DNA of 37,791 nt from a virus. Taxonomy: Duplodnaviria; Caudoviricetes. The notes beneath the pieces were generated by a model that searched no databases, had not been told where the DNA came from, and worked only from the letters and a program-made list of their open reading frames with translations. The stretch covers positions 1 through 37,791 of IMG/VR virus record IMGVR_UViG_3300030059_002116; one strand, 5' to 3'. The translations under genes were made by a program, and so were the position numbers. Shown in pieces: positions 10,111 to 37,330 of this stretch (position 1 is its first letter; every line of letters starts with the position of its first letter).

Positions 10111-10743
10111 ATGAAGACTTATGTTGTATTAGAAAATAGTTATGGGAGCCGATATAATAGCCCCTATACTTTTTTTGTTTTTCCATCCTTACAAGCTACT
10201 AAAGACTGTAAAGAAATTAACGAGTTTAGTTTAGTCTATAGCACTGTAGAGCAATTACAAAAAACATACAAACCCCAAGAATTGTATTCTATAATGAGTT
10301 CAATAAAGACGACCTTTGCACCTGCTCGTGATGGCTATGAAGACGAGTATCATCAGTTCTTTATATTCGTTCAAAACAACGCAAAGAAATATAAAGCACC
10401 TAAAGAGGACTTAAATTGGTCTGCCGTCCGGTCAGCCCTCCAAGCACACCTTACGCAAAAAGTGCAACCCAAACGAAAGATTACACCTTCAGTTAAGATA
10501 CTGTCCGACATAGTTATGAAAGCTGTTTCTTCTTCTAGTTATAAAGACGAAGCTGTAATAACGGTGAACAAAGGTAATCCTTACACATATGGTAGTAACC
10601 GATACCATAACTTTGAAGCTATTGCCTCTTCAAAAACAGTAGCTGAAGCTCTGGTAAAAATGAAAAAACTTATTCCTGGAGGGAATAGGGTAGATATAAA
10701 ATTAGCGATACAACGAGATGCTATATACATAGGGGACAGGTAA
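10111..10743 (+). CDS. Hypothetical protein, possible C-terminal DNA-binding domain
   Basis: AGAAAGGAG RBS; basic C-terminal 'NPYTYGSNRYHNFE...KTVAEAL' domain; first gene of the modification operon. Confidence 0.65.
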   Translation: MKTYVVLENSYGSRYNSPYTFFVFPSLQATKDCKEINEFSLVYSTVEQLQKTYKPQELYSIMSSIKTTFAPARDGYEDEYHQFFIFVQNNAKKYKAPKEDLNWSAVRSALQAHLTQKVQPKRKITPSVKILSDIVMKAVSSSSYKDEAVITVNKGNPYTYGSNRYHNFEAIASSKTVAEALVKMKKLIPGGNRVDIKLAIQRDAIYIGDR

Positions 10744-10744
10744 T

Positions 10745-11692
10745 ATGAATATTAATAAAGCAGATGAGCTAGAGCCAATTGAGCGTTTCTTTTATTGGAT
10801 AAATGAAAGGCACGCTATATATCAAAAACGAATACAAGGCTTTGCTCCCCCTTGGACAGATGATTCTATTCTACAAAGCTATAAATTTACAAACCCATTC
10901 CGTGAAAATGATAAAGTTACCATATGGATGCGACAGAACTGGACGAAGCCAAATGGCAATCGACCAATGGGTGAAATTTTGTTTAACTGCTGTTTGTTTC
11001 GTATGGTGGGAACTATAGAATTTGCTGATGAGCATAAGTGGGTTTATGAAGACTATGGCTGGTCTGTTGAAAGAACCAAAGAAACAATATCTGCTCGGTT
11101 AGAGAAAAAATTGCGGACCTTTACTGGAGCGTATATAATAACTAATCAAGGTTTAAAGTTACCCAAAGGAGAAGTTGTAGTTGACCATTTCCTCAAACCA
11201 ATATGGGAAAATAAAGAAAGGCTTGCAGAGGTTGCGACCAAAACTAACTCGTTACAAGAAGTACACCGTGCGATGCTTGCCTATAAAGGGTGGGGTGGAG
11301 GGGGCTTTATGTCTTACGAAGTGGTTACCGATCTCAATCACACAAACGTATTGGACACGGCGACAGACCGTTTTACTTGGGCAAACGCTGGTCCAGGGGC
11401 AAAACGAGGACTAAACCGAATACACGAAAAATTGTTAACACAAGCCATGAGCCAACACCAAGCTAATACTCAAATGCAAAACTTATTACAAAAATCATCA
11501 CAGTATTTGTTAAGTCATGTCCCAATAGAAGAAGTTGATATGCGAACTATTGAGCACAGCCTTTGTGAATGGGATAAATGGGAACGAGTTAGATTAGAAC
11601 AAGGTACACCTCGTAGTAAGTACGATCCTGTGCAAGCCTTTAAAGATAAAGAGTTTTTAGAGACAGGGAGTGTTGGCAATGTTGTGTCTTAA
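10745..11692 (+). CDS. 5-hydroxymethyl-dU DNA kinase family protein (aGPT-Pplase1 / HhH-glycosylase-like helical fold)
   Basis: Family signature 'FFYWINERHAIY.KR..G..PPWTDDSILQSYKFTNPFRENDKVT', 'GGFMSYEVVTD', 'GPGAKRGL', 'IEHSLCEWDK'. Confidence 0.8.
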   Translation: MNINKADELEPIERFFYWINERHAIYQKRIQGFAPPWTDDSILQSYKFTNPFRENDKVTIWMRQNWTKPNGNRPMGEILFNCCLFRMVGTIEFADEHKWVYEDYGWSVERTKETISARLEKKLRTFTGAYIITNQGLKLPKGEVVVDHFLKPIWENKERLAEVATKTNSLQEVHRAMLAYKGWGGGGFMSYEVVTDLNHTNVLDTATDRFTWANAGPGAKRGLNRIHEKLLTQAMSQHQANTQMQNLLQKSSQYLLSHVPIEEVDMRTIEHSLCEWDKWERVRLEQGTPRSKYDPVQAFKDKEFLETGSVGNVVS

Positions 11693-12011: not shown

Positions 12012-12812
12012 ATGATACCAATATATATATTAACTAGAGGAAGAGTAAGTAAACAAACCACATGGGAGAGTATAGGAGTACACGCTCAAAACTCAGAGCA
12101 TACTGTGTTGGTATGTCCTACTGAAGAAGTGTCTAGGCATCAACATTTTAACAGAAGAGCATTGGATCGTGGAGACGTAAAGGGTGCTCCTAATGTTAGG
12201 CAATGGATACTAGAACATGCAAAGGAAAAGGACTATGATAAAATTATTGTTTTGGATGACGATCTTATATTTGGTCGCAGAGCACACCCTGACTTACCAT
12301 CTTTAAGAAAAACAACTAAGAACGAGATGTATGAATTGTGGGATAGAATGGAAGCTCTGTTAGATGGCTTTGTGCATGTTGGGGTTAGTCCACGCCAGAT
12401 GAATGATAAACATTTTCCACATGTGTTCAAAAAGTGTATGCGACAAAACGCTTTGCATGGGCTACGACCTAAGGATATACTCCGCACAGATTTAAAATAT
12501 AATGATGTAGAGTTAATGGAGGATTACCATATGACATTAGGTTTGTTTGGTATAGGTCAAGCTAACGCAGTTATTACTGATTGGACATGGGATCAGCGTG
12601 GTGCAAGTGGAGCTCCCGGAGGTTGCAGTCTTTACCGTGATGCTGCATTACAAGAGGAGGCTAGTAAAAAGTTGGAAAGTAAGTACCCTGACTTTGTCAA
12701 GTCTTTACAAAAAGAAACTAAAACAGGATGGGAAGGAATGAAAACACGATGGGATGTACGAGTACAATGGCGAAAAGCTGCGAAACAAGGAGGCTGTGAA
12801 TATGGAGTATAA
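12012..12812 (+). CDS. GT-A fold DNA-base glycosyltransferase-like protein (TET/JBP-associated TAGT/GREB1-like)
   Basis: 'IYILTRGR' start, 'RQWIL', DxD motif 'IIVLDDDL', 'MEDYHMTL', 'PGGCS.YR'. Confidence 0.7.
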   Translation: MIPIYILTRGRVSKQTTWESIGVHAQNSEHTVLVCPTEEVSRHQHFNRRALDRGDVKGAPNVRQWILEHAKEKDYDKIIVLDDDLIFGRRAHPDLPSLRKTTKNEMYELWDRMEALLDGFVHVGVSPRQMNDKHFPHVFKKCMRQNALHGLRPKDILRTDLKYNDVELMEDYHMTLGLFGIGQANAVITDWTWDQRGASGAPGGCSLYRDAALQEEASKKLESKYPDFVKSLQKETKTGWEGMKTRWDVRVQWRKAAKQGGCEYGV

Positions 12813-13797
12813 ACAAGAGCCCCCTAACGCTATTCAAATAGAATTAGCTGAGGGCTGTAATCTAGCCTGTTCTTTTTGTGGTATACAAGCTATACGAGAG
12901 AATGGGGCTGACGGTCCAAAGAAGGTAAGAGGCAAAGGCTCTGGTCCATATAAGTTTCTTAGTATGGAAGTAGCTGAACGCATTGCCGATTCTATAGTGG
13001 AAGCCAAATGGAACAGTAGGTTAGAGTTTGCTATGCACGGTGAGCCAACGATGCACCCCCATTATCACGATATGATAAAGTTGTTTAGAAATAAATTACC
13101 TAAAGCCTCTATTATGATGACAAGTAATGGTGGTGGTCTTTTACTAGGCGACGGCTTAAACGCTAACATCAACAAACTGATGGACTCAGGTTTAAATGTT
13201 TTGTTTTTAGATAACTATGATGGAATAAAAATAGTAGATAAAATACAAGCTAAATATGAAGGTCCTCATGAGGTAATACAATATCCCCATGATAAGAGAG
13301 GCAACCCACACAAACGAAGAAAGCCTAATGAGCATCATATTGTAGTCGGAGCAGATTTAACTTTAGCTAGTGATGGAACACATGCACAAGTTAGTAATCA
13401 TGCCGGATCGGCTTTCCCACTTAACGATAAGCAAGAGGGCAAACGATGTGCCAAACCCTTCAGGGAGCTCAGCTTAAGATGGAATGGTAAGGTTGCTCTT
13501 TGTTGTAATGACTGGACAGGTTGGTACAAGTGTGGGGATGTAATGGAGGAAAAAATAAATGAAATCTGGACTAATGACTTGTTTCTTGGTGCAAGAACAA
13601 GATTATATCACGGTTCACGTGACTTCGGACCGTGTCGTGGCTGTGATAACGCTACTATTCGTAATGGGCTTTTGCCTGACCGAATGGGCAAAGTGGAGAT
13701 GCCGAAGCCAACAATTCAAACAGATAAACATATTGAAGAAGCGTTAAAAGGTGGCACTTACACAAAACAAGTCAAGCCTATATTTGACTTTATTTAA
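12802..13797 (+). CDS. Radical SAM protein with SPASM/twitch domain
   Basis: CxxxCxxC 'CNLACSFC', 'HGEP', C-terminal 'CAKPF...CCNDW...PCRGC'. Start at ATG 12802 after AAGGAGG. Confidence 0.88.
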   Translation: MEYKQEPPNAIQIELAEGCNLACSFCGIQAIRENGADGPKKVRGKGSGPYKFLSMEVAERIADSIVEAKWNSRLEFAMHGEPTMHPHYHDMIKLFRNKLPKASIMMTSNGGGLLLGDGLNANINKLMDSGLNVLFLDNYDGIKIVDKIQAKYEGPHEVIQYPHDKRGNPHKRRKPNEHHIVVGADLTLASDGTHAQVSNHAGSAFPLNDKQEGKRCAKPFRELSLRWNGKVALCCNDWTGWYKCGDVMEEKINEIWTNDLFLGARTRLYHGSRDFGPCRGCDNATIRNGLLPDRMGKVEMPKPTIQTDKHIEEALKGGTYTKQVKPIFDFI

Positions 13798-13899: not shown

Positions 13900-14910
13900 A
13901 TGGCTTTATATGGAAAGACTATGCGTAGTGACCACAGCTTTTGTTGTGTTAACGTCAGTGACGCATTATATTTAATAAAACAATCTATTGAAGAAAACGG
14001 TGTACGAGTTGAAACTAGGAATGGACCAGCTTTAGAGTTTCCTAACCCTTGTATCATTACATACAACAACCCAAAAGAAAGGGTACTGTTTTACCCTGAG
14101 CGTGATGCCAACCCCATCTTCCATTTTATGGAAAGTATGTGGATGCTTGATGGGCGTAATGATTTATATTTTATAAAATATTTCAATAAACAAATGGAAC
14201 AATACAGTAATGACAAGCATACGGTGTCAGGTGCTTATGGTTATCGATGGCGAAGGTACTTTGCAAGAGACCAATTTGAAACAGTAATACATCGTTTAAG
14301 AAAGTATCCTAACGATCGTAGGACTGTCTTGAGTATGTGGGATGCAGTGCATGACCTACGGAAGGACAATGAGTCTAGGGATTTACCTTGCAATACTCAC
14401 ATTTATTTTTACATACGAAACAATATGCTGGATATGACAGTGTGCAATCGTAGTAATGATTTGATATGGGGAGCTTGTGGAGCTAATGCTGTGCATATGA
14501 GTTTCTTACAAGAGTATATTGCTACAATGGTTGGTGTAGAAGTGGGAACATATACTCAGTTTTCTAACAATCTACACGCTTATGATTTTACTTTAAAAAA
14601 GCTAGAAGGTATGCAACCTGACTATGATTCTTATGCCTCTAGAAATTTTACCACCTTACCTCCGTTGATTGATGATATTAAAACATTTGATAATGAATTA
14701 ACTTTGTGGTTACAACACCGAGCAGTGTCTAAGGATTGGACAAACTCTATATTCGCTAATGTTGCTCAGCCTATGCTACAAACATGGAATGCTTGGAAAG
14801 ACAAAGACTGGAAAAAAGCATATGCTAATGCTGAACGGATAGGTTCAGATGATTGGTGCGTAGCAACTTTAGAATGGTTAAACCGTAGAAAGGATTTATT
14901 TAATGGATAG
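13900..14910 (+). CDS. Thymidylate-synthase homologue, probably dUMP hydroxymethylase
   Basis: Catalytic 'DLPCN', 'NRSNDLIWGACGAN' (Asn at the dUMP-specificity position), 'NNLHAY'. Divergent from canonical ThyA and embedded in a modification cluster. Confidence 0.8.
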   Translation: MALYGKTMRSDHSFCCVNVSDALYLIKQSIEENGVRVETRNGPALEFPNPCIITYNNPKERVLFYPERDANPIFHFMESMWMLDGRNDLYFIKYFNKQMEQYSNDKHTVSGAYGYRWRRYFARDQFETVIHRLRKYPNDRRTVLSMWDAVHDLRKDNESRDLPCNTHIYFYIRNNMLDMTVCNRSNDLIWGACGANAVHMSFLQEYIATMVGVEVGTYTQFSNNLHAYDFTLKKLEGMQPDYDSYASRNFTTLPPLIDDIKTFDNELTLWLQHRAVSKDWTNSIFANVAQPMLQTWNAWKDKDWKKAYANAERIGSDDWCVATLEWLNRRKDLFNG

Positions 14911-15202
14911 GGGATATAGCCTTATAATAGAACAAGTTAAGGACTTAGCAAATGAAGATGTAATAGAATTACATAAAGCCGAACTGTCGTACGGCGACAG
15001 TTGGAAAAAGCGAGGGGGTGTCGGTGCGTTTATGATGCTTGCTCGTAAATGGGATAGGCTTCAGAACCAAGTGGATGGACACAGTTATGATATATTTAAA
15101 GCTATCTCAGAAGACCAACGCCCCGAAGGCATACTAGATGATATACGTGATTTGCGTAGATATCTGTTGTTGGTTGAGGCAGAAATGATAGGTGATGACT
15201 GA
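14903..15202 (+). CDS. Nucleotide-modification-associated all-alpha protein (Nmad1/DUF1599-like)
   Basis: 'SYGDSWKKRG..GAFMMLARKWDRL...DDIRDLRRYLLL'. Confidence 0.65.
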   Translation: MDRGYSLIIEQVKDLANEDVIELHKAELSYGDSWKKRGGVGAFMMLARKWDRLQNQVDGHSYDIFKAISEDQRPEGILDDIRDLRRYLLLVEAEMIGDD

Positions 15203-15359: not shown

Positions 15360-17247
15360 GTGGGTTATGCCTGACGGCTACCCTGATTTAAGAGAAGCAA
15401 AAGAAATAGCTATTGACCTTGAAACACGTGATCCAAACCTTTTAACAATGGGCTCTGGGTGGGCTAGGGGTGATGGCGAAATAATAGGAGTTGCCGTAGC
15501 AACACACAGCGAATCATGGTACTTTCCTATACGCCACCAGAATGGCACTAACCTTGACCCTGATCAGACGATGAGGTGGGTTAAAGACTTATGTAGCATA
15601 AACCGTGACTATATTATGCACAACGCCATGTATGACGCTGGTTGGCTCTGGCAAGAAGGTATTGATATAAAAGGTCGCATGATTGACACAATGGTTGTCG
15701 GTGCTTTGCTTGATGAAAACAGGTTTAGCTATGCTCTTAACTCTTTGGGTCGTGATTATCTTGGTGAGCGTAAGAATGAAAAAGATTTACAAGAAGCTGC
15801 GAGGCAGTTTGGTGTCAATGCTAAAAGTGAAATGTATAAACTCCCTGCTCATTTTGTAGGAGCTTACGCTGAACAAGATGCAGCTTTGACAATGAAGCTA
15901 TGGCAGTTATTTAAAGGTCTAATTATCAAAGAAGATATTGCCGACATATTTGAATTAGAAACAAATGTTCTACAAGTCGTACTTGCTATGCGAAAAAAGG
16001 GTGTACGAGTGGACTTACCAAAAGCACAAGAGCTTAAAGAGAGGCTTGAAAAGCAAGAGATAGAAGTTTTAAAATCAGTGGGAGGTGAGGGTATTGATAT
16101 CTGGGCTGCTCGTAGTATTGCAAAAGCCTTTGATGCTGTTGATTTAAGATACCCAACTACTGAAAAGTCTAAGCAACCAAGTTTCACTAAAAACTTTTTA
16201 GCCAATCACGAGCACGCTTTGCCTCGTGCCGTCGTTAGGGCAAGAGAACTTAATAAGGCTCGTACAACTTTTATAGATACTATACTCAAGCACCAACATA
16301 AAGGTAGGATATTTGCTGAAGCCCATCCACTTCGCAGTGATGAGGGTGGGACAGTTACAGGTCGATTTAGCTACAGTAACCCCAACCTTCAACAAGTCCC
16401 TGCTCGTAACGCTGAAATAGGTCCGTTAATTCGTGGTTTGTTTTTACCTGAAGAAGGTGAGTTATGGGGGGCGTTTGATTACAGTAGCCAAGAGCCTCGT
16501 TTAGTTGTTCATTATGCAGGATTATTAGACTTTAAAGGTGCAATGGACTTCGTTGAGCAATACCAAAAGGACAAGCATACTGACTTCCACCAGATGGCAG
16601 CTGATATTGTGGGAGTGCCTCGTAAGCAAGCTAAAGATATTAATTTAGGTTTGTTCTATGGCATGGGTAAGAATAAACTTGCTGAGCAGTTGGGTCTTGA
16701 ACTAGAAGATGCCAAAGACTTATTCGCCGAGTATCATGGCAAAGTTCCTTTTGTCCAGCAGTTAGCTGATTATGCTACAGCTCGAGCAAGTAAAAAAGGT
16801 GTTATAAGAACGCTATTGGGACGTAGATGTAGGTTTGATAAATGGGAGCCTAACGCTTATGGAACATTCAAACCATTACCCTATCAAGAAGCATACAATG
16901 AACACGGACCAGCGATTCGTAGATGCTTTACTTATAAGGCATTGAACAAATTAATTCAAGGGAGTGCTGCTGACCAAACAAAAGCTGCGATGGTAGCTCT
17001 CCACAAAGAAGGCATAGTGCCAATGATACAAGTTCATGATGAATTAGATGTGTCTGTACAAAGTGAAGCTCAAGCAAAAAGGATACAAGAAGTTATGGAA
17101 AACTGTGTGGAAATGAAAGTACCTAGCGTTGTTGATGCTGAGTTTGGTTTGAGCTGGGGCATGGCAAAGAAAACATTTAGTGATAAACCGTGGACAAGAG
17201 GAAAAGCAGATGGACACAGCAAGCAACAAACGAACAACAAACTTTAA
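15328..17247 (+). CDS. Family A DNA polymerase with 3'-5' exonuclease
   Basis: Exo 'IAIDLET', 'HNAMYD', 'YAEQD'; motif A 'FDYSSQEPR', motif B 'RKQAKDINLGLFYG', motif C 'QVHDEL'. Confidence 0.95.
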   Translation: MQFPLFTPPTEWVMPDGYPDLREAKEIAIDLETRDPNLLTMGSGWARGDGEIIGVAVATHSESWYFPIRHQNGTNLDPDQTMRWVKDLCSINRDYIMHNAMYDAGWLWQEGIDIKGRMIDTMVVGALLDENRFSYALNSLGRDYLGERKNEKDLQEAARQFGVNAKSEMYKLPAHFVGAYAEQDAALTMKLWQLFKGLIIKEDIADIFELETNVLQVVLAMRKKGVRVDLPKAQELKERLEKQEIEVLKSVGGEGIDIWAARSIAKAFDAVDLRYPTTEKSKQPSFTKNFLANHEHALPRAVVRARELNKARTTFIDTILKHQHKGRIFAEAHPLRSDEGGTVTGRFSYSNPNLQQVPARNAEIGPLIRGLFLPEEGELWGAFDYSSQEPRLVVHYAGLLDFKGAMDFVEQYQKDKHTDFHQMAADIVGVPRKQAKDINLGLFYGMGKNKLAEQLGLELEDAKDLFAEYHGKVPFVQQLADYATARASKKGVIRTLLGRRCRFDKWEPNAYGTFKPLPYQEAYNEHGPAIRRCFTYKALNKLIQGSAADQTKAAMVALHKEGIVPMIQVHDELDVSVQSEAQAKRIQEVMENCVEMKVPSVVDAEFGLSWGMAKKTFSDKPWTRGKADGHSKQQTNNKL

Positions 17248-17737
17248 AAGCCTGGATACTATTTATGATGCACAGTTTCTTATGCGATATCATACCGTTC
17301 CAATACAAGGATTGAGGCAGACAGTGGGAGCACATTCATACGCAGTAGCTATACTTATTGACCAACTTTGGGAAAATGTACCGAAGCAGTTAATCATGGC
17401 AGCTCTATACCACGATGTTCCTGAGATGGTCTTAGGCGATATTCCTGCTACAGCGAAATGGGATTATCCTGAAGTCAAACGAGCCTTTGAAAAAGCAGAA
17501 GCAAAGGTGATGGAAGACCTTGGATTGACTTTTATACTTAGCCCAAAAGACAAAGCTCGTTTAAAGATGGCAGACATGTTAGAATTAGTTCTCTATTGTG
17601 AAAAGCACGCTGACGCAAACACTCAAATGAAAATAATTATGAACACTGGAGTCCAGTATTTGTTTAGCAATTTCAGTGAGTTGAAGGACTTTGAGCCTGT
17701 GAAAGAAGTTTTACGGAATCGCAATTTGAGTAACTAG
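17210..17737 (+). CDS. HD-domain 5'-deoxynucleotidase (YfbR-like)
   Basis: 'RYHT...QTVGAHSY', 'ALYHDVPE..LGDIP', 'LKMADMLE'. Confidence 0.85.
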   Translation: MDTASNKRTTNFKSLDTIYDAQFLMRYHTVPIQGLRQTVGAHSYAVAILIDQLWENVPKQLIMAALYHDVPEMVLGDIPATAKWDYPEVKRAFEKAEAKVMEDLGLTFILSPKDKARLKMADMLELVLYCEKHADANTQMKIIMNTGVQYLFSNFSELKDFEPVKEVLRNRNLSN

Positions 17738-20436: not shown

Positions 20437-20666
20437 TGGCAAAATTACAAAATAGTCATTTAGTAGATAATGACGACATCAACCTTCACACTGAGAATAT
20501 ACTTCGTAAAATAAAAGTATGGTTGCGAGACGAAGTTAATAGCGTAAGAGATAATCCTCTCTCTGAAGATGATGATAGTAGGGAGTCGGCAATTCTTCAA
20601 GGTAGGTATGAATGTGCTGAAGGGTTACAAGACCAAATTAAAAAATGGGAGAGAGAAGATGGGTAA
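20436..20666 (+). CDS. Hypothetical protein
   Basis: AAGGAGG RBS; TAATG coupling. Confidence 0.6.
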   Translation: MAKLQNSHLVDNDDINLHTENILRKIKVWLRDEVNSVRDNPLSEDDDSRESAILQGRYECAEGLQDQIKKWEREDG

Positions 20667-20859
20667 ATACAATTCAGACAGCATTGATGAATGTTGTGAA
20701 GAAATAACTGGTCATACTAACTGGGCGTATGCAGACAAATCTGATTACGAAAAGATAATGAGCCAAAGAAATGGGGATCATCCCAACAGTGATAGAATAC
20801 ATTCTATTGTTGTGTTTTATAATGATGAAATGGAGGACGAACCCTATGACGGAGTATAA
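20659..20859 (+). CDS. Hypothetical acidic protein
   Basis: Start re-assigned to ATG 20659 (MGKYNSD...), overlapping the previous stop. Confidence 0.55.
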   Translation: MGKYNSDSIDECCEEITGHTNWAYADKSDYEKIMSQRNGDHPNSDRIHSIVVFYNDEMEDEPYDGV

Positions 20860-21196
20860 TAATGCGTGGATGGTAGAGTTTTGGTCGGTAAAAGACAAGG
20901 TATGGGAAATAATGGTTTCCTATCCATCTACAAAACTTGTGAGTTTAAATAACCAAGTGCCTCAGCCTCTCGGCGATGTTCACGATCTAGACATAGGCGA
21001 AGTAAGAGCCTCCCATGCCAAAAGGATTTACGAAAGGCTAGGACTTGCACGCTACCGAGTTCGGTATGGACATGCCACATATTTAGATGGGCAGTTTGGA
21101 AAGCAGGACAAATATGTTTTTGAGTACGATCGTACCGAAGTAAAAGCCGAGATACCTTATAATAGGCAAGCTCCGCCTGGAGCAGCTCTCTCATGA
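20846..21196 (+). CDS. Hypothetical protein
   Basis: Start re-assigned to ATG 20846 after GGAGG. Confidence 0.55.
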   Translation: MTEYNNAWMVEFWSVKDKVWEIMVSYPSTKLVSLNNQVPQPLGDVHDLDIGEVRASHAKRIYERLGLARYRVRYGHATYLDGQFGKQDKYVFEYDRTEVKAEIPYNRQAPPGAALS

Positions 21197-21405
21197 GTGT
21201 GCTTGAAATGAAAGTGGTCGGAGGCAAACGGACCTATCGCAACCGATCCGTTCGTGAGAAATTAATTAACGATATAGCCAAGATGGATAGCTCTTCTATC
21301 CGTAAAAATATAGATCGTTACGCAGAAATACCTTTTCGTCGCCAGCGAGACGCTTTGATGTTTGAGCTGTACACTGAGGAATTGCAACGGAGGGAAGCCC
21401 AATGA
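21193..21405 (+). CDS. Hypothetical protein
   Basis: ATGA overlap with the previous gene. Confidence 0.55.
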   Translation: MSVLEMKVVGGKRTYRNRSVREKLINDIAKMDSSSIRKNIDRYAEIPFRRQRDALMFELYTEELQRREAQ

Positions 21406-21526
21406 TTATATTATCCGTAATATTTTTTCTACTTGTCGTTTGGTTGATTAAATAGATTACTTTTTACTACATTTAGTAAAATCGCACTATATAATAAAAG
21501 TAAGTAAACAACTAAAGGAGTGATAA

Positions 21527-25530: not shown

Positions 25531-25559
25531 TTTACATCAGCGAAAATAGCTGCTATTCT
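25531..25559 (+). promoter_or_regulatory. Strong sigma70-type promoter (cassette 1)
   Basis: TAGGGG-TTTACA-17 bp-(TGc)TATTCT, extended -10. Confidence 0.65.
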
Positions 25560-25616: not shown

Positions 25617-26090
25617 ATGGCTAAAACAGCTAAAAAAGAGCAAGCAACTCAGGCTCCAACAGTTGCATCCTACTCAGGCATTACAGCGTTATCAGCTGAA
25701 CGTATCAAGGGTCGTGAAGGTGTCAAGGCGTCGGACATTATCGCATTTATCCAAGAGTTCGCAGGTGGCAATCCAAACAATGTCGGTATTCGTTTGGTTG
25801 GTGGTGTTGATATCAAGGCTGAGCTTCCATTTCCTTGGGAAGCCAAGAAGTCAATGTATCACGAAAATGGTGTTAAGAAAACTGAAAAGCGTGCGAGGGT
25901 CATGTGGGCTTTAATCTATTGCCAATCAAATGATGAAACATATACTCTTCAGGCTTGTGATCTTGACCATAAGATAATCAAGGCTAAACAATATCACGGT
26001 CTACTTGACGCACTTAATGGCGGACAGTCACCTTCCAAAGCATCATGGGGTAAAAACTTCGTTGAGCTCTTCGTTATCCCTAAGGCTTAA
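25617..26090 (+). CDS. Hypothetical protein, probable remote paralogue of 26773-27285
   Basis: Own promoter, AGAAAGGGAG RBS and terminator; shares ordered motifs with the next cassette protein. Confidence 0.75.
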   Translation: MAKTAKKEQATQAPTVASYSGITALSAERIKGREGVKASDIIAFIQEFAGGNPNNVGIRLVGGVDIKAELPFPWEAKKSMYHENGVKKTEKRARVMWALIYCQSNDETYTLQACDLDHKIIKAKQYHGLLDALNGGQSPSKASWGKNFVELFVIPKA

Positions 26091-26102
26091 CACTCATCAC
26101 TC

Positions 26103-26132
26103 GGGGCGAGGGCTTATGTCTTCGTCCCTTTC
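26103..26132 (+). terminator. Rho-independent terminator (cassette 1)
   Basis: GGGGCGAGGGC-ttat-GTCTTCGTCCC (G-U pairs), then T-rich. Confidence 0.65.
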
Positions 26133-26144
26133 ATTTACCTGTTT

Positions 26145-26275
26145 ACTTAACATGTTAAGTTTCGTTCCCTGACGGGATTTTTTTCCCCTGACGGGGGATG
26201 GATGGAGATGGATGGAGATGGATGGAACATGAATCAATTAGACTCAGGAACATATATATACATATATACATATAC
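26145..26275. repeat. Palindrome and short-repeat region
   Basis: 16-bp palindrome ACTTAACATGTTAAGT, two CCCTGACGGG hairpins, (GATGGATGGA)x3 at 26197-26226, CATATATA repeats. Confidence 0.75.
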
Positions 26276-26408
26276 AATAACCATTATCAAATCACACATA
26301 TTGGTTGAATCAATAAGAGTCATTAAATATAAATTAATCTTAATGATAACTTCTTCGTTGTGTCTTTTTTGTAAACAGTTAAATTAAAGTTATTAACAAC
26401 AACAACTA

Positions 26409-26606
26409 ATGGAGTTTAAAATGCAAGTAATGGGAGTAATAATGTTTTTAATGGGTGGATTTGCTGTCGCAAGTGGTTACTTAATATTAAAGTATGCAAC
26501 GGTAGATATTATGGCTGCGACGGTTATATGTGGTTTTATCGCTAGCTTGGGAATGTTACTATTAATAGCAGGACTATATACTATATATATACATAGGCTT
26601 AAATAA
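26409..26606 (+). CDS. Small membrane protein (2 TM)
   Basis: Two hydrophobic helices; the start may be ATG 26421 after GGAG. Confidence 0.55.
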   Translation: MEFKMQVMGVIMFLMGGFAVASGYLILKYATVDIMAATVICGFIASLGMLLLIAGLYTIYIHRLK

Positions 26607-26681
26607 TGGCGTTGTTAGCAGTGTTATTATTTTTAATATTAATGTTATTTAAATTAATTTAACTTTATTTGTATTTAGGGG

Positions 26682-26710
26682 TTTACAAGTAAAACTAGTT
26701 GTGATATAAA
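26682..26710 (+). promoter_or_regulatory. Strong sigma70-type promoter (cassette 2)
   Basis: TAGGGG-TTTACA-17 bp-(TGa)TATAAA; same -35 context as 25531. Confidence 0.65.
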
Positions 26711-26772
26711 TAGGTGTGGCGTTGTGCCACTTAATATAAACTTAACAAGTTAACAAACCAAAGGGGTTTAAA

Positions 26773-27285
26773 ATGCAAACACAAACAACAAGTTACACAC
26801 CAACAGTAACTATAAAAAACAGTCACCAACAAGCTACCAACCTAGTAGCGTTTATCAAGGCTAATGGTGGTATAGGTAAATGGTCATTACTATTAAATGC
26901 TAACGCAATGGTTACTGTAAAAGGTAAAACAGTATTTTTCGGTGGTGGCAATATGCACCAAGCAATGTTCCCAACTAGTGGCAAGTTAGGTCATAGGGGT
27001 CAAATATTATGGTCATGTGTTAATGGTTTAACTTTGCCAAGTAGTCATGTTAAAAAGCAACCGTTGCCAATTAGTACAACAGTGCCAACAACGCTTGTAC
27101 CTATCCCGCTAAGTGCAATCCAACAAGCTCACGCTAACAGTGGCAGTAGCATACTAAGTATTGGCAACGCATTACATGCAAATCAAAACGCAGTCAACGC
27201 AATCCTAATAGGTAACTTTGCATATAGTAGTAGCAAGGGTAGCATGTTAGGCAATACGTACGGTACGCTCGTACCTAACGCTTAA
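26773..27285 (+). CDS. Hypothetical protein with no Asp/Glu, encoded by a GA-free transcript
   Basis: 170-aa ORF with its own promoter, AAGGGG RBS and terminator; no GA dinucleotide in the gene. Confidence 0.75.
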   Translation: MQTQTTSYTPTVTIKNSHQQATNLVAFIKANGGIGKWSLLLNANAMVTVKGKTVFFGGGNMHQAMFPTSGKLGHRGQILWSCVNGLTLPSSHVKKQPLPISTTVPTTLVPIPLSAIQQAHANSGSSILSIGNALHANQNAVNAILIGNFAYSSSKGSMLGNTYGTLVPNA

Positions 27286-27291
27286 CTAATT

Positions 27292-27326
27292 ACTAGCTAG
27301 GGGTTGAGGTACCCCTAGCTAGTTTC
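27292..27326 (+). terminator. Terminator hairpin (cassette 2)
   Basis: Perfect 13-bp stem ACTAGCTAGGGGT/ACCCCTAGCTAGT, loop TGAGGT, short T tail. Confidence 0.75.
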
Positions 27327-27517
27327 TACTACTGTTAACATGTTAATGATTCGGTCACCCCCCTAGACAGAGAGGACGTGTACATGCACAGCACCTTGTA
27401 CAGGTTTTCCACAAATCATTACCCCTCAGATAATTATTTTTTTACCCCCACCCCCTTTTTTGAAACAATGATGATTGTCCTCTTGCCCTTTTAAATTTTT
27501 TATAATATTTTAAAATT

Positions 27518-28987
27518 ATGGATGGAACACCTTTAAACGTACCTGAAGAAGTATTGCGTAAATACGCTAAGTTATTAGAGAAGCAGCAACAGATTGTGTC
27601 GGCTGACGGAGCTCGCGAAGATTTCTTACAATACACAAAAGCCGTTTGGGCAGATTTCATTGAGGGTCGCCACCATAAGATTATGGCAGAAAAATTTAAC
27701 CGTGTAGCACGAGGCGAGCTTAAACGTCTTATTATTAATATGCCTCCTAGACATACGAAGTCAGAATTTGCTAGTTACTTATTACCGAGTTGGCTAATGG
27801 GAAGAAACCCAAAGTTAAAGATAATACAGGCAACGCACACTGGCGAACTGGCAGTTCGTTTTGGTAGAAAAGCAAGAAACCTTATGAACCATGCCGATTA
27901 TAAACGAGTATTCCCTGATGTCAAAATACGATCGGACAGTAGTGCTGCTGGAAGATGGGAAACCGACAAAGGTGGAGAATACTTTGCGGCTGGTGTTGGA
28001 GGAGCGATTACTGGACGTGGTGCCGATTTAATGATTATTGATGACCCCCACTCGGAGCAAGATGCGATGAGCCCTGCTGCGTTAGACAATGCTTATGAGT
28101 GGTATACTTCTGGACCTCGACAAAGGCTTCAGCCTGGAGGTTCTATTGTAATTGTTATGACGCGATGGTCGGAGATTGATTTAACAGGTAAATTGTTAAA
28201 ACAACAGGCACGAGATGTATTGGCTGATAAATGGGAAGTTGTTGAGTTTCCAGCGATAATGCCAGATGATACGGTGTTATGGGGTGAGTTTTGGAAGAAG
28301 GAAGAATTATTAACGGTTAAGGCTTCATTGTCTATAGGTAAGTGGGAAGCTCAGTGGCAGCAAAATCCGACGAGTGAAACCACAGCGATTCTAAAACGTG
28401 ACTGGTGGAAAAAGTGGGAAAAGAAAGAGTTACCTAATTTAACGTACATTATGCAAAGTTACGACACAGCTTTTGGAAAACAGGAAACGGCAGATTATAG
28501 TGCGATAACCACATGGGGCGTTTTTTACCCAGAAGAGGGTGGACCAGCCAATATTATAATGTGTGATGCCCGACGAGGAAGATGGGAATTCCCAGAGTTA
28601 AAGCGTATAGCAAAAGAAGAATATGAGTATTGGGATCCGGAATGTGTAATTATTGAAGCGAAAGCGAGTGGTACTCCATTGACGCAAGAGCTACGGACTA
28701 TGGGCATTCCAGTACAAAATTATAGTCCAAGTCGAGGTAACGATAAATTTACTCGTGTGAATTCAGTTGCACCCTTAATGGAAAGTGGTTTAGTATGGGC
28801 TCCAGATACTCGTTGGGCAGAAGATGTTATCGAAGAGTGTGCCGCATTCCCAGTTGGGGAAAACGATGACTTTGTTGATACTGTAACACAAGCCTTACGA
28901 AGATTTCGTGAAGGTGGCTTTATAACGACTCCAGAGGATTATAATGACGAGACGATACGAGGACCAAGAGCAAGAGTTTACTATTAA
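27518..28987 (+). CDS. terL: Terminase large subunit
   Basis: 'MPPRHTKS' Walker A, 'IIDDPH' Walker B, nuclease 'SYDTA...DYSA', 'IEAKASG', 'NDDFVD'. Confidence 0.95.
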   Translation: MDGTPLNVPEEVLRKYAKLLEKQQQIVSADGAREDFLQYTKAVWADFIEGRHHKIMAEKFNRVARGELKRLIINMPPRHTKSEFASYLLPSWLMGRNPKLKIIQATHTGELAVRFGRKARNLMNHADYKRVFPDVKIRSDSSAAGRWETDKGGEYFAAGVGGAITGRGADLMIIDDPHSEQDAMSPAALDNAYEWYTSGPRQRLQPGGSIVIVMTRWSEIDLTGKLLKQQARDVLADKWEVVEFPAIMPDDTVLWGEFWKKEELLTVKASLSIGKWEAQWQQNPTSETTAILKRDWWKKWEKKELPNLTYIMQSYDTAFGKQETADYSAITTWGVFYPEEGGPANIIMCDARRGRWEFPELKRIAKEEYEYWDPECVIIEAKASGTPLTQELRTMGIPVQNYSPSRGNDKFTRVNSVAPLMESGLVWAPDTRWAEDVIEECAAFPVGENDDFVDTVTQALRRFREGGFITTPEDYNDETIRGPRARVYY

Positions 28988-34002: not shown

Positions 34003-34411
34003 ACTAATAGTCCCTAGGCGATTTGCCAGTACTCCCCAAGACTCCCAAGAAAAAGAAACCCAAGACGTACCTATTTTAGAAAAGTTACCAGAACCAACAG
34101 GTTGGAGAATATTAGTTCTTCCATACCGAGGAAAAGGTAAAACTGAAGGAGGCGTTTTTATACCTGATGCAGCAGTAGAAAGAGAAGCTCTTGCTACTGT
34201 TTGTGCTTTAGTCCTTAAAGTGGGACCTCTTGCATACAAAGATACCGATAAATTTGGCGAAAGTGGTGCATGGTGTAAAGAACAAGACTGGGTTATATTT
34301 GGTCGATATGCAGGAAGCCGTTTTAAAATAGAAGGTGGCGAAGTAAGACTTCTAAACGATGATGAAGTATTAGCTCGTATTAATGATCCAGCAGACATAT
34401 TACATATATAG
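33995..34411 (+). CDS. groES: Phage-encoded co-chaperonin GroES
   Basis: 'PTGWRILV...KTEGGVFIP...VLKVGP...VIFGRYAG...EVRLLNDDEVLA'. Confidence 0.88.
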   Translation: MSKLIVPRRFASTPQDSQEKETQDVPILEKLPEPTGWRILVLPYRGKGKTEGGVFIPDAAVEREALATVCALVLKVGPLAYKDTDKFGESGAWCKEQDWVIFGRYAGSRFKIEGGEVRLLNDDEVLARINDPADILHI

Positions 34412-34420
34412 GGGAAGAAC

Positions 34421-35302
34421 ATGGCAGACACACAAGAAAAAATTGAAGACGAAATTGAAGTTGAATTAGAAAATGATGAAGATCAGTCTATCGAGCAAAA
34501 GGCTGATTCCAAGGCTAACGAAGATGAAGATAGTCTTGAGGGGTACGGCAAAAAAGTAAAAGAGCGTATCGAGCGGATGACTTGGAAATTAAGAGAGTCT
34601 GAAAGAAGAGAAAAAGCAGCCACGGAGTATGCCCAAGCTCTACAAAAAACTAATGAAGATTTAACTGAGAGAACTAAAAAAGTAGATGAATCATACATAA
34701 AAGAGTATGATAATAGGGTACTTGGTGAAGAAGAAACCTTAAAAAGAAACTTACAAGATGCAATAAATAATGGTGATGTTGAGGCACAGGTGAATACTCA
34801 AAAGAGTATAGCTCGACTTGCAGTAGAATCTGAACGTTTGAGTGTTGTGAAAGCAGAAAACGAAAATCGTGTTAATCAACAAAAAGCTGCTGAAGAGGCT
34901 AAGAAGAATGCTCCTCCGCAACAAAAAGCTGCACCAGATCCAAGAGCAGAGAAGTGGGCTTCCCAAAATTCGTGGTTCGGCGATAACGAGCCTATGACGT
35001 TAACAGCTTTTAGTATACACAAAAAATTAGTTGAAGAAGAAGGATACAGCCCTAACTCAGATGACTATTATGCTGAGATAGATAACAGAATGAGGACAGA
35101 GTTCCCACACAAATTTGAAAAAGCTCCTCAAAAAGGGACTAATCAAAGACCTCCAGTAGCAGGGGTTTCACGTTCTAGTGGAACTGTTTCTAAAGGAAAA
35201 ATCAAACTTTCAAAATCACAGGTTGCTATTGCTGACAAACTTGGTGTAAGCTACGAAGCGTATGCAAAGCAACTTATGAATTTGCAACAACGTGAAGGAT
35301 AA
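34421..35302 (+). CDS. Putative capsid scaffolding protein
   Basis: Acidic coiled coil with C-terminal 'LSKSQVAIADKLGVSYEAYAK'; lies upstream of the capsid genes. Confidence 0.65.
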   Translation: MADTQEKIEDEIEVELENDEDQSIEQKADSKANEDEDSLEGYGKKVKERIERMTWKLRESERREKAATEYAQALQKTNEDLTERTKKVDESYIKEYDNRVLGEEETLKRNLQDAINNGDVEAQVNTQKSIARLAVESERLSVVKAENENRVNQQKAAEEAKKNAPPQQKAAPDPRAEKWASQNSWFGDNEPMTLTAFSIHKKLVEEEGYSPNSDDYYAEIDNRMRTEFPHKFEKAPQKGTNQRPPVAGVSRSSGTVSKGKIKLSKSQVAIADKLGVSYEAYAKQLMNLQQREG

Positions 35303-35307
35303 ACCAA

Positions 35308-35766
35308 ATGGCTGACCGTATATCACGCACCACAAAGACTCGTGAAAAACAAACACGCAGGAAACCGTGGACCCCACCGTCAACACTAGACGCTCCTCCT
35401 CCCCCAGAAGGTTATACTCATCGTTGGATCCGTGAATCAATCATGGGATTTGATGATAAGAAAAATCTATCTGCAAGGCTCCGCGAAGGCTTTGAATTAG
35501 TTCGTGCAGACGAGTACCCCGATTTTGAAGCTCCTACAGTTCAGGATGGAAAACATTCTGGCGTTATAGGGGTGGGTGGCTTAATACTCGCAAGGTTCCC
35601 CCTAGAGTCGAAAGCTGAACGACAAGCACATTTTAAAGGTCTTACTAGAGATCAACAACAAGCTGTCGACAACGATATGATGAGGGAGCAACACCCTAGT
35701 ATGCCTATTCTGAAACCAGAAAGGCAAAGTCGTGTAACTTTCGGTGGTAAAAATGCCTCCGATTAA
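35308..35766 (+). CDS. Conserved head-module hypothetical protein
   Basis: 'HRWIRES...LREGFELVRADEYPD...GVGGLILAR'. Confidence 0.7.
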   Translation: MADRISRTTKTREKQTRRKPWTPPSTLDAPPPPEGYTHRWIRESIMGFDDKKNLSARLREGFELVRADEYPDFEAPTVQDGKHSGVIGVGGLILARFPLESKAERQAHFKGLTRDQQQAVDNDMMREQHPSMPILKPERQSRVTFGGKNASD

Positions 35767-35788
35767 CTTTTAGAGAAGGAAATAAGAA

Positions 35789-36409
35789 ATGGCAAATAAT
35801 ATAGATGCCCCTTTCGGACTTCGTCCTTATAACCTCTTGGGTTCTGCACCAAACAACAGTGGATTAACTCCTTACAAGGTACAAGTATCAGCAACGGCTG
35901 GATCATCAAGTCTCATCCATCAAGGTGACATGGTTATCCCGTTGACTAATGGACTTGTAGATGTTAGTGCTGCTGATGGAGGAAGTGTAGCAATTTTAGG
36001 CGTTATGGCGGGATGTGAGTACATCGATCTTACAGGAAAACCTGTATATAACAACTACTATCCTGGAACAGCAGCCATAAAATCTGGTACAGAAGCTTCT
36101 GTATTTATTTATGACAACCCTTTTCAGGTCTACGAAATCCAAGGTGACGCTACTTTAACAAATATAGCTACCGCTCAAGCATTGGTTCATTCCAACGCTG
36201 AAGGTGCTGGTTTTGCCTCTACTACTGGAAACAGTTTTATCTCCACTGGAGAACTTTCTGTTACCTCAGCAGGAGCAACAACTGCTACTGATAATTTCCG
36301 TATCATTGGTCTTAAAGACAGTTTCAATGACATAGATGTTGCATCAGCAGGAGTTCGTTTTTTAGTTAGGTTAACTTTACCTTTTCATCTTGATACAACT
36401 GGTCTATAA
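35789..36409 (+). CDS. Putative minor capsid/decoration protein
   Basis: 'MANNIDAPFGLRP', Ala/Gly/Thr-rich beta protein directly before the MCP. Confidence 0.65.
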   Translation: MANNIDAPFGLRPYNLLGSAPNNSGLTPYKVQVSATAGSSSLIHQGDMVIPLTNGLVDVSAADGGSVAILGVMAGCEYIDLTGKPVYNNYYPGTAAIKSGTEASVFIYDNPFQVYEIQGDATLTNIATAQALVHSNAEGAGFASTTGNSFISTGELSVTSAGATTATDNFRIIGLKDSFNDIDVASAGVRFLVRLTLPFHLDTTGL

Positions 36410-36421
36410 GGAGATATTGAT

Positions 36422-37330
36422 ATGGCTATTGCAAGATCCCAACTCCTTAAAGAATTAGAGCCTGGATTAAACGCTCTATTTGGTTTGGAGTACGATAGGT
36501 ATGATAACGAACATACCGAAATATATGAGACTGAAACTTCAGACAGAGCGTTTGAAGAAGAAGTAATGCTGTCTGGCTTTGGAACAGCACCTGAAAAAGC
36601 AGAGGGTGCTGCCGTTTCTTTTGATTTGGCAAATGAGTCTTTCACTGCAAGGTATACACATGAAACAATCGCATTAGCGTTTGCGATTACTGAGGAAGCT
36701 GTAGAGGATAACCTTTATGACAAACTTAGTTCTCGTTACACTCGTGCGTTAGCTCGTTCTATGTCTAATACTAAGCAAGTAAAAGCCGCTTCTGTTTTAA
36801 ACAATGCGTTCGACAGTAACTTTACGTTTGGTGATGGTAAGGAGCTTTGTGCTACTGATCATCCGACATCGGCAGGTGGTAACTTTAAAAACGAGTTAAC
36901 TAACTCCGCTGACTTAAACGAAACTTCCTTAGAACAGGCATTAATTGATATAGCAGCTTTTATTGACGAAAGAGGACTTAAAATTGCTCTTAAAGGAACG
37001 AAGATGATTATCCCACCAGCACTACAGTTTGTTGCTGAAAGGTTAATGAAGACTACTCTTCGTCCTGGAACAGCAGATAATGACATAAACGCAATGAGCA
37101 ACATGGGAATGTTACCTCAAGGGTATGTTATTAACCACTTCTTAACTGATACAGATGCGTTTTTCATTAAAACTGATGCCCCTAATGGCTTCAAACATTT
37201 TGAAAGAGCTTCTATTGCTACAAGTATGGAAGGTGACTTTGATACAGGCAACGTAAGATATAAGGCTCGTGAGCGTTATAGCTTTGGTGTTTCAGACCCA
37301 AGATGTGTGTTTGGATCTCCGGGAGTTTAA
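36422..37330 (+). CDS. Major capsid protein (HK97 fold)
   Basis: 'MAIARSQLLKELEPGLNALFGLEY...YKARERYSFGVSDPR'; strong RBS; terminator downstream. Confidence 0.9.
   Translation: MAIARSQLLKELEPGLNALFGLEYDRYDNEHTEIYETETSDRAFEEEVMLSGFGTAPEKAEGAAVSFDLANESFTARYTHETIALAFAITEEAVEDNLYDKLSSRYTRALARSMSNTKQVKAASVLNNAFDSNFTFGDGKELCATDHPTSAGGNFKNELTNSADLNETSLEQALIDIAAFIDERGLKIALKGTKMIIPPALQFVAERLMKTTLRPGTADNDINAMSNMGMLPQGYVINHFLTDTDAFFIKTDAPNGFKHFERASIATSMEGDFDTGNVRYKARERYSFGVSDPRCVFGSPGV

Follow-up and report, generated by a model that had tools for sequence, protein, structure and literature searches.

A GA-free gene beside its ordinary twin in a marine phage lineage carrying a DNA-modification gene cluster

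The window, i.e., the whole stretch of DNA that was analysed, comprises the 37,791 nucleotides of the IMG/VR record IMGVR_UViG_3300030059_002116 (Duplodnaviria; Caudoviricetes), which is 63% complete and encodes PolA, primase, terminase, portal, and capsid genes. Between terS and terL lies a transcription unit whose coding strand has lost the dinucleotide GA (hereafter, purged), and 700 nt upstream of the purged gene lies a paralogue of ordinary composition with its own promoter, leader, and terminator in the same layout. The features of this region are as follows:

25531..25559, + strand: putative sigma70-like promoter of the ordinary paralogue, with the same flanking layout and with GA and TC present
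25617..26090, + strand: ordinary paralogue, 157 aa, with 16 Asp/Glu, 21 GA, and 36 TC; AlphaFold pLDDT 90.4
26103..26128, + strand: terminator-like hairpin of the ordinary paralogue
26606..26662, + strand: 18-aa hydrophobic ORF overlapping the upstream region of the next promoter; 0 GA, 0 TC
26682..26710, + strand: putative sigma70-like promoter of the purged unit (−35 box 26682–26687, 17-nt spacer, −10 box 26705–26710 without its last T)
26713..26766, + strand: 5′ leader with a short hairpin (26713–26730) and a GA-free ribosome-binding site (26761–26766)
26773..27285, + strand: GA-free purged paralogue, 170 aa, no Asp/Glu; AlphaFold pLDDT 81.9
27293..27322, + strand: terminator-like hairpin with 11-bp arms, the first GA (27306) in its loop, and a weak T tail
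27358..27407, + strand: conserved motif (C-run plus a GA-rich, GTAC-containing part), bordering the purged zone on its right side in homologues
27518..28987, + strand: terminase large subunit (terL), directly 3′ of the purged unit wherever a record spans the site

On the + strand, GA occurs at 26703 and then at 27306, and this gap of 603 nt compares with 131 and 117 nt for the two GA gaps of the window that follow it in length. From 26705 to 27305, GA is found 0 times against 41.6 expected from composition, AG 39 times against 41.6, and TC 16 times against 30.0; with 118 G and a window-wide probability of 0.32 that A follows G, the probability of no GA is ~1e-20. The ORF at 26773–27285 encodes a protein without D or E (P ~2e-11 at genome frequencies), its single R codon is AGG, none of its 17 Gly codons is GGA, and it stops with TAA; furthermore, none of its 72 A-starting codons is preceded by a G-ending codon, despite the presence of 21 such codons. 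Shuffling its codons gave a mean of 8.9 GA with zero GA in 0/100,000 shuffles, and back-translation of the protein with genome codon usage gave a mean of 14.0 GA with zero GA in 0/20,000 trials. Chance and composition are thus ruled out as the cause of the gap. Avoidance of UV photoproducts is ruled out by the abundance of template-strand TT (AA on the coding strand; 85 against 74.8 expected), and an amino-acid or tRNA cause by the codon junctions and the Gly codons; no tRNA genes were detected in 18 stretches of six relatives. An earlier sequence-only reading of this DNA had claimed the absence of GA from the promoter to the terminator loop, together with the absence of D, E, and GGA, the sole AGG, and the TAA stop, and all of these were confirmed; the codon-aware shuffle that it had proposed is the one given above, and equally long gaps elsewhere, which it had named as evidence against itself, are absent from the window for GA. 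The GA-free gene is present on contigs from four sequencing runs, one of which is possibly the source sample, with few differences at most and no GA created. The window stretch, whole or in part, was found in 20 runs from seven studies, i.e., the lineage is spread across marine metagenomes, and no RNA dataset is among the listed runs that carry it.

The last GA before the purged unit (26703) is located in the promoter spacer. The promoter is absent from the consensus scan list because its −10 box lacks a T; the same layout is found 5′ of homologues. The ordinary paralogue has a GA-containing ribosome-binding site at the position that corresponds to the GA-free site of the purged leader, and in homologues a hairpin follows the stop codon at the corresponding place. 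An ORF of 16–22 aa similar to the hydrophobic ORF at 26606–26662 is found in 13/13 other loci shown and is free of GA and TC in 12 of them. Farther upstream, a 58-aa membrane ORF is also purged in five of the 14 loci shown (L029, L084, L098, L100, and L108), and its counterpart in the window (26409–26606) carries seven GA.

Homologue scans yielded 115 loci with 85 distinct coding sequences (CDS), including that of the window. Eight protein homologues with 41–83% aligned identity have one acidic residue in total, and six more distant full-length homologues (P0013-16, P0019, and P0024) have none; homologues that lack D and E thus extend to ~25–45% identity, which answers the question of the sequence-only reading as to whether homologues share this property. 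The purge generally concerns both strands: 67 of the 85 CDS lack GA as well as TC (pooled, 1 GA against 2404 expected and 10 TC against 1880 expected). In the other 18, including the window, TC has been regained (pooled, 297 against 538 expected), while GA stands at 14 against 605 expected and all 14 GA sit in Asp/Glu codons; each of these 18 CDS has 0 synonymous GA against 10–14.5 expected and 8–30 TC against 12–24 expected. In a tree built from the 77 complete CDS, with partial CDS, N-containing CDS, and the window's own duplicate excluded, the TC state changed seven times, and five of these changes are forced by strong branches. The strand specificity asserted in the sequence-only reading therefore holds for the window, but not for the 67 CDS purged on both strands; its claim of selection on the nucleic acid at the cost of two amino acids is supported by the D/E-free homologues and by the absence of synonymous and junction GA. 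GA on one strand is TC on the other, so that the target is a site in duplex DNA, and the 67 CDS without either dinucleotide place the constraint on DNA and not on mRNA. The strictest constraint is on template-strand TC, the site that is never regained. Among near-identical proteins (e.g., L066/L067 against L003/L068), coding-strand TC switches between 0 and 20–30 sites, i.e., almost all-or-none, possibly as a result of a changed host or mark. Among 80 terL loci and three cultured phages, five loci (terL identity 73–76%) have an upstream GA gap that holds a distant member of the family; two other long gaps (GA in L150 and TT in L175) were set aside as skewed or repetitive sequence.

These counts bear on the proposal that the mRNA escapes a GA-specific ribonuclease, or that its translation escapes a loss of tRNA-Asp/Glu. 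Some mRNAs escape sequence-specific toxins, e.g., ghoT under MqsR and ACA-less genes under MazF, and the likeness is that the absence of a short motif keeps one unit expressed; moreover, in the window only the mRNA-sense GA is missing. Here, however, the purge acts on duplex DNA, promoter included: TC is also gone in 67/85 homologues, the purge reaches past the −35 box into promoter DNA that is not transcribed, the junctions and Gly codons exclude a codon-only cause, and the purged gene co-occurs with DNA-modification genes. Escape of mRNA or translation is therefore largely refuted and is regarded as extremely improbable.

The thymidine-modification cluster with which the purged gene co-occurs consists of a dUMP hydroxymethylase, aGPT-Pplase1, and a glycosyltransferase; in the window, these and the associated genes are the following:

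10745..11692, + strand: aGPT-Pplase clade 1 protein (PF18723, HMUDK_hel); PF18723 E 5e-49, M6 gp55 E 1e-38
12012..12812, + strand: TET-associated-type (TAGT) glycosyltransferase (PF20691)
12754..13797, + strand: radical SAM/SPASM protein
13900..14910, + strand: thymidylate-synthase-like protein; M6 gp58 E 1e-78, nearest to the Yuavirus/PhiJL001 dUMP hydroxymethylases (43%)
17180..17737, + strand: HD-domain nucleotidase, a homologue of M6 gp59

The assignment of the PF18723 protein as a 5-hmdU kinase was dropped; it is a homologue of M6 gp55 and not of the kinase gp54. Among 23 records, several of them near complete, no phmmer match below E 0.3 was found to the P-loop 5-hmdU kinase (M6 gp54), and no match at E ≤ 1 to the clade-2 aGPT-Pplase amino acid:DNA transferase (M6 gp51). 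Both aGPT-Pplase1 and the synthase are present in 16/23 records, to which one fragment that starts past the cluster is added to give 17 records of the modifying lineage. The ordinary paralogue is found in 17/17 of these, and 15 also carry a copy with 0–3 GA beside terL; of the remaining two, G081 has a partly purged ORF that is unmatched by the family profile and G082 ends before the site. By contrast, 6/6 controls without the cluster have neither copy and no gap. The controls are three IMG/VR records spanning PolA to terL and three cultured phages, each represented by its first 50 kb; aGPT-Pplase1 is missing from the complete records of these phages as well. Most records were found via the purged gene itself and the controls are more distant (terL identity 56–64%), so that the co-occurrence is partly kinship; among seven records picked by aGPT-Pplase1 alone, six span the site and five of these have a purged family copy. 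Genome-wide, TC at codon junctions stands at 0.61–0.84 of expectation in the 17 records against 0.96–1.02 in the six controls, and TG is not depleted. In clades without the TAGT enzyme, the same slot is occupied by another gene, which passes the Pfam cut-off as a GT-B glycosyltransferase in 2/5, matches weakly in 1/5, and has no assignment in 2/5. Between aGPT-Pplase1 and the synthase, G030 (34910–35932) and G073 (20546–21517) encode proteins of 340 and 323 aa in this slot, which are candidate new DNA-modifying enzymes. Two further ORFs (10111–10743 and 14903–15202) accompany the cluster in relatives, and the former is weakly similar to PhiJL001 gp18. Neither the ordinary paralogue at 25617–26090 nor the link to the modification cluster was recognised in the sequence-only reading.

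Thymidine hypermodification based on 5-hmdU is known from Pseudomonas phages M6 and PaMx11, Salmonella phage ViI, and Delftia phage phiW-14 (PMC8989533; PMC5889632; PMC6449724). The window shares with this pathway homologues of the dUMP hydroxymethylase, aGPT-Pplase1, and HD nucleotidase next to PolA. TC is one of the two contexts, TG and TC, proposed for the 5-hmdU-derived modifications of M6, ViI, and phiW-14 (PMC6449724). Unlike M6, the window lineage is devoid of the P-loop kinase and of the clade-2 transferase and has a glycosyltransferase instead, and M6 has no purged gene. Because the kinase linked with TG/TC is absent from all 23 records, the TC context is here read from the purge itself. 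A second point of comparison is provided by the pelagiphage clades of the HTVC023P type. According to the accessible text of Wittmers et al. (2022), a cluster of TS and aG/PT-PPlase1, with a nucleotidase and a glucosyltransferase, occurs in three such clades, and these share the gene order and cluster with the window (TS and aG/PT-PPlase1 near PolA), while that text mentions no dinucleotide-free gene or paralogue pair in them (PMC9599517). By terL, the nearest cultured phages are Pelagibacter phages HTVC027P/HTVC023P, with 56.0–61.9% identity (PolA ~51%; the primase and capsid module are related as well), and the gammaproteobacterial phage DSL-LC04, which is as close (61%); the cultured members of the HTVC023P type have neither the cluster nor the gene nor the gap. 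Base J of kinetoplastids is glucosylated 5-hmU and has a role in stopping transcription. The likeness to base J lies in a predicted sugar on 5-hmU placed by a TAGT-type glycosyltransferase (PF20691); the differences are a precursor made at the nucleotide level, dense marking of a dinucleotide, and a gene that avoids the mark, and the chemistry in the window is predicted. Phage genomes avoid restriction sites, and the first-step-transfer region of T5 is poor in them. The purge resembles this avoidance in being a selection against a DNA motif that is strongest where a region may act first, and differs from it in the two-base motif, total local removal, the loss of two amino acids, and the retention of an unpurged twin; furthermore, the motif is apparently the phage's own mark, and the genome-wide depletion of TC is only mild.

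We consider it quite likely that the purge represents avoidance of the phage's own DNA mark. Of the two mechanisms put forward in the sequence-only reading, that of a template strand that must lack TC is indirectly supported by the modification cluster, the co-occurrence, the return of coding-strand TC in 18/85 CDS, and the 0 synonymous GA, while that of a ribonuclease acting on mRNA is opposed by the 67/85 CDS that also lack TC. Alternatively, the modified base may be the G or A of GA (a deazaguanine- or adenine-type modification), so that the coding strand must stay clear, in agreement with coding-strand GA as the site never regained. One of the motifs modified in phage CAjan is reportedly GA. 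That CAjan modifies G at two motifs is described in the available portion of the report (PMC7544227). The cluster that co-occurs with the purge is, however, of the pyrimidine type; PF01702 (TGT; a model that may miss DpdA) and PF01227 (GTP cyclohydrolase I) were each found in 0/5 near-complete relatives, and neither the TGT family nor GTP cyclohydrolase I is represented among 63 ORFs of the window. A modified purine is regarded as highly improbable.

The borders of the purge fit a transcription unit. Each genome has a single purged zone adjoining terL. For the 71 CDS that have a −35 box and sufficient flanking sequence, the median distance from this box back to the nearest preceding GA is 85 nt, and the GA is within 15 nt of the box in 1/71; downstream, the first GA appears 7–23 nt past the start of the C-run in 59/67 CDS, and the purged zone extends ~25–40 nt beyond the terminator hairpin up to the conserved motif. 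Single GA sites are tolerated in the promoters, leaders, and CDS of homologues. The motif at 27358–27407 is a possible genome end or packaging site, which would suit the idea that 0.6–1 kb by the packaging site or genome end stays unmodified for terminase loading or first-step ejection and that the gene was recoded on account of its location there. The tie of the right border to the motif (59/67) is in line with this idea, as are the purge of both strands in 67/85 CDS, that of the upstream membrane ORFs in 5/14 loci shown, and the 12/103 contigs that end 100–150 nt past the stop codon against 0–5 in other 50-nt bins, a count in which some contigs recur between collections. It accounts poorly for the repeated reappearance of TC, which is limited to the coding strand, for a left border that follows the promoter, and for the retention of the ordinary twin, for which position alone would give no reason; contig depths display neither the doubling of a terminal repeat nor a pile of ends, and motif scans for further genome ends covered 3 and 10 loci, which are too few. 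A constraint of the DNA end is quite unlikely, and transcription is likely to be the reason for the purge. The record G071 starts and ends inside the purged unit, with ~370 nt repeated (1–370 and 59234–59603), as either an assembly overlap or a terminal repeat.

In the parts available, the papers on hypermodification treat the mark as protection from nucleases and describe no modification-free gene (PMC8989533; PMC5889632; PMC6449724). Survival of the purged fragment when a modification-dependent nuclease of the host cuts modified DNA, with an inhibitor as its product, would be consistent with the purge of both strands in most homologues, and such nucleases acting against hypermodified phage DNA exist (cited in PMC8989533). 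This reading is opposed by the 18 CDS that carry 8–30 TC on one strand, by the inability of a cut genome to replicate further, and by the lack of a fold link of the protein to a known inhibitor, and is considered very unlikely.

The ordinary paralogue aligns to the GA-free family with an hhalign E of 9.7e-5 (probability 58%) and is hit by a profile search, and bridging sequences, e.g., the purged copy of G083, match both groups (E 1e-11 and 2e-7). A tree of 16 pairs splits into two clades, with an ordinary and a purged group inside each, and its long branches meet; either one or two duplications are compatible with it. In most records the ordinary twin is GA-poor (rank 32/34 ORFs in the window) and TC-rich (rank 3/34), and may therefore be partly purged on the template strand. 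Both copies are basic or neutral with confident AlphaFold models (81.9 and 90.4). Nothing clear was found for either in Pfam, PHROGs, NCBIfam, or PDB sequences, Foldseek gave no match for the purged copy (PDB and BFVD) or the twin (PDB), and no relative of the family was found in cultured phages or GTDB genomes. A VIA structure search with the twin reached a best Z of 4.1, with none ≥ 5 among 48,161 chains; several weak matches align residues ~76–154 of the twin (e.g., 9f27, Z 2.6, and 2ma3, Z 3.1), most of which we take to be winged-helix domains. In the ESM Atlas, the purged copy reached 0.80 at best without a lead and the twin 0.90 to Pam3_Gp34 clusters, a link that is not borne out by the Pfam scan or the fold. 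Because of the absence of carboxylates and the few invariant polar residues, a DNA- or protein-binding role is likelier than that of an enzyme, and the purged protein probably binds DNA or polymerase and thereby assists the reading of the remaining genome.

A mechanism may be proposed on this basis. At replication, 5-hydroxymethyluracil would replace T, and 5-hmU at TC would afterwards be glycosylated to give a bulky, sugar-bearing mark that, on the template strand, would slow or stop the host RNA polymerase. When fully modified virion DNA enters the cell, the host sigma70 enzyme would read the purged unit well, so that its product would be made first; this small basic protein, with a C-terminal half weakly similar to a winged helix, would open the rest of the genome, and the ordinary twin, which keeps Asp/Glu, would take over, especially from fresh DNA that is not yet glycosylated. 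Studies of other polymerases and marks, in the portions of the reports available, are consistent with such a block: once 5-hmU was phosphorylated, the output of the Escherichia coli polymerase fell to 10% of that obtained with 5-hmU itself in the template (PMC6457204), T7 polymerase is inhibited more strongly by bulky or charged groups when these are on the template strand, and at promoters bacterial polymerase is blocked by the bulky ones (PMC11550810). The reading of the purged unit by host polymerase as the first step from modified virion DNA is slightly favoured. The full proposal, in which a gene with an 18-amino-acid alphabet serves as the bootstrap of a chemically masked genome and its product makes all other genes readable, the full-alphabet twin among them, is tentative and falls somewhat short of an even chance. 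An opposite timing is also conceivable, in which most units fall silent as progeny DNA is glycosylated and the purged copy still makes a protein needed at the packaging stage. The evidence for a purge at the level of transcription fits this late role equally, and the unit lies between terS and terL. Against it, the DNA that arrives in the virion has to be read as well, which makes an early role hard to avoid, and both copies have host-type promoters, which are typical of early units; a late survivor is accordingly unlikely.

Unpurged cases weigh against the best reading. G086, which is 100% complete, carries aGPT-Pplase1, the synthase, and both paralogues, and neither is purged (34314–36151); its terL-side copy has 12 D/E, 17 GA, and 24 TC, and L352 and L353 are alike. 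The copy of G089 (35548–36935) is partly purged, with 8 D/E, 9 GA, and 19 TC. With a distant ordinary copy as query, 15 loci were found, 11 of which span the second copy, and this copy is purged in seven (1 GA, 0 TC), unpurged in three, and partly purged in one. Throughout this lineage the gene is duplicated, and the copies of the G086 and G089 types imply that the purge is graded and not obligatory, as would be expected, in an after-the-fact reading, if the penalty varies with the mark or with the polymerase of the host. M6 and PhiJL001, which modify T or carry a similar cluster, show no dinucleotide gap, and tblastn gave no match to the family in them. G086 and G089 are natural controls for the mechanism. 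In G081, a 221-aa ORF before terL (38357–39022) has 7 D/E, 8 GA, and 2 TC and no match to the family profile, and is perhaps a very diverged or an unrelated purged gene.

A targeted literature search, with most subscription journals outside it, retrieved only papers on the chemistry and the lineage and no description of a purged gene; we know of no described system in which a gene has been rewritten to avoid the modification of its own genome while an ordinary twin is kept. The purged twin is real and conserved, and probably of a new kind. It bears on how phages with bulky DNA modifications have their first genes transcribed by the host enzyme, may allow the modified motif of uncultured phages (here, TC) to be deduced from sequence alone, and offers a natural family of folded proteins that lack Asp as well as Glu and can each be compared with an ordinary twin. 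If the bootstrap proposal is true, purged units should be general in hypermodifying phages and their modification motifs readable from sequence; should the protein assist polymerase on modified DNA or remove the mark, it would provide a new activity for sequencing or expressing modified DNA. Finally, short tandem repeats (GGAT-type and AT-rich) are located at 26180–26290, just after the terminator of the ordinary twin; such repeats are common at this place in relatives and are a frequent point of assembly breaks.
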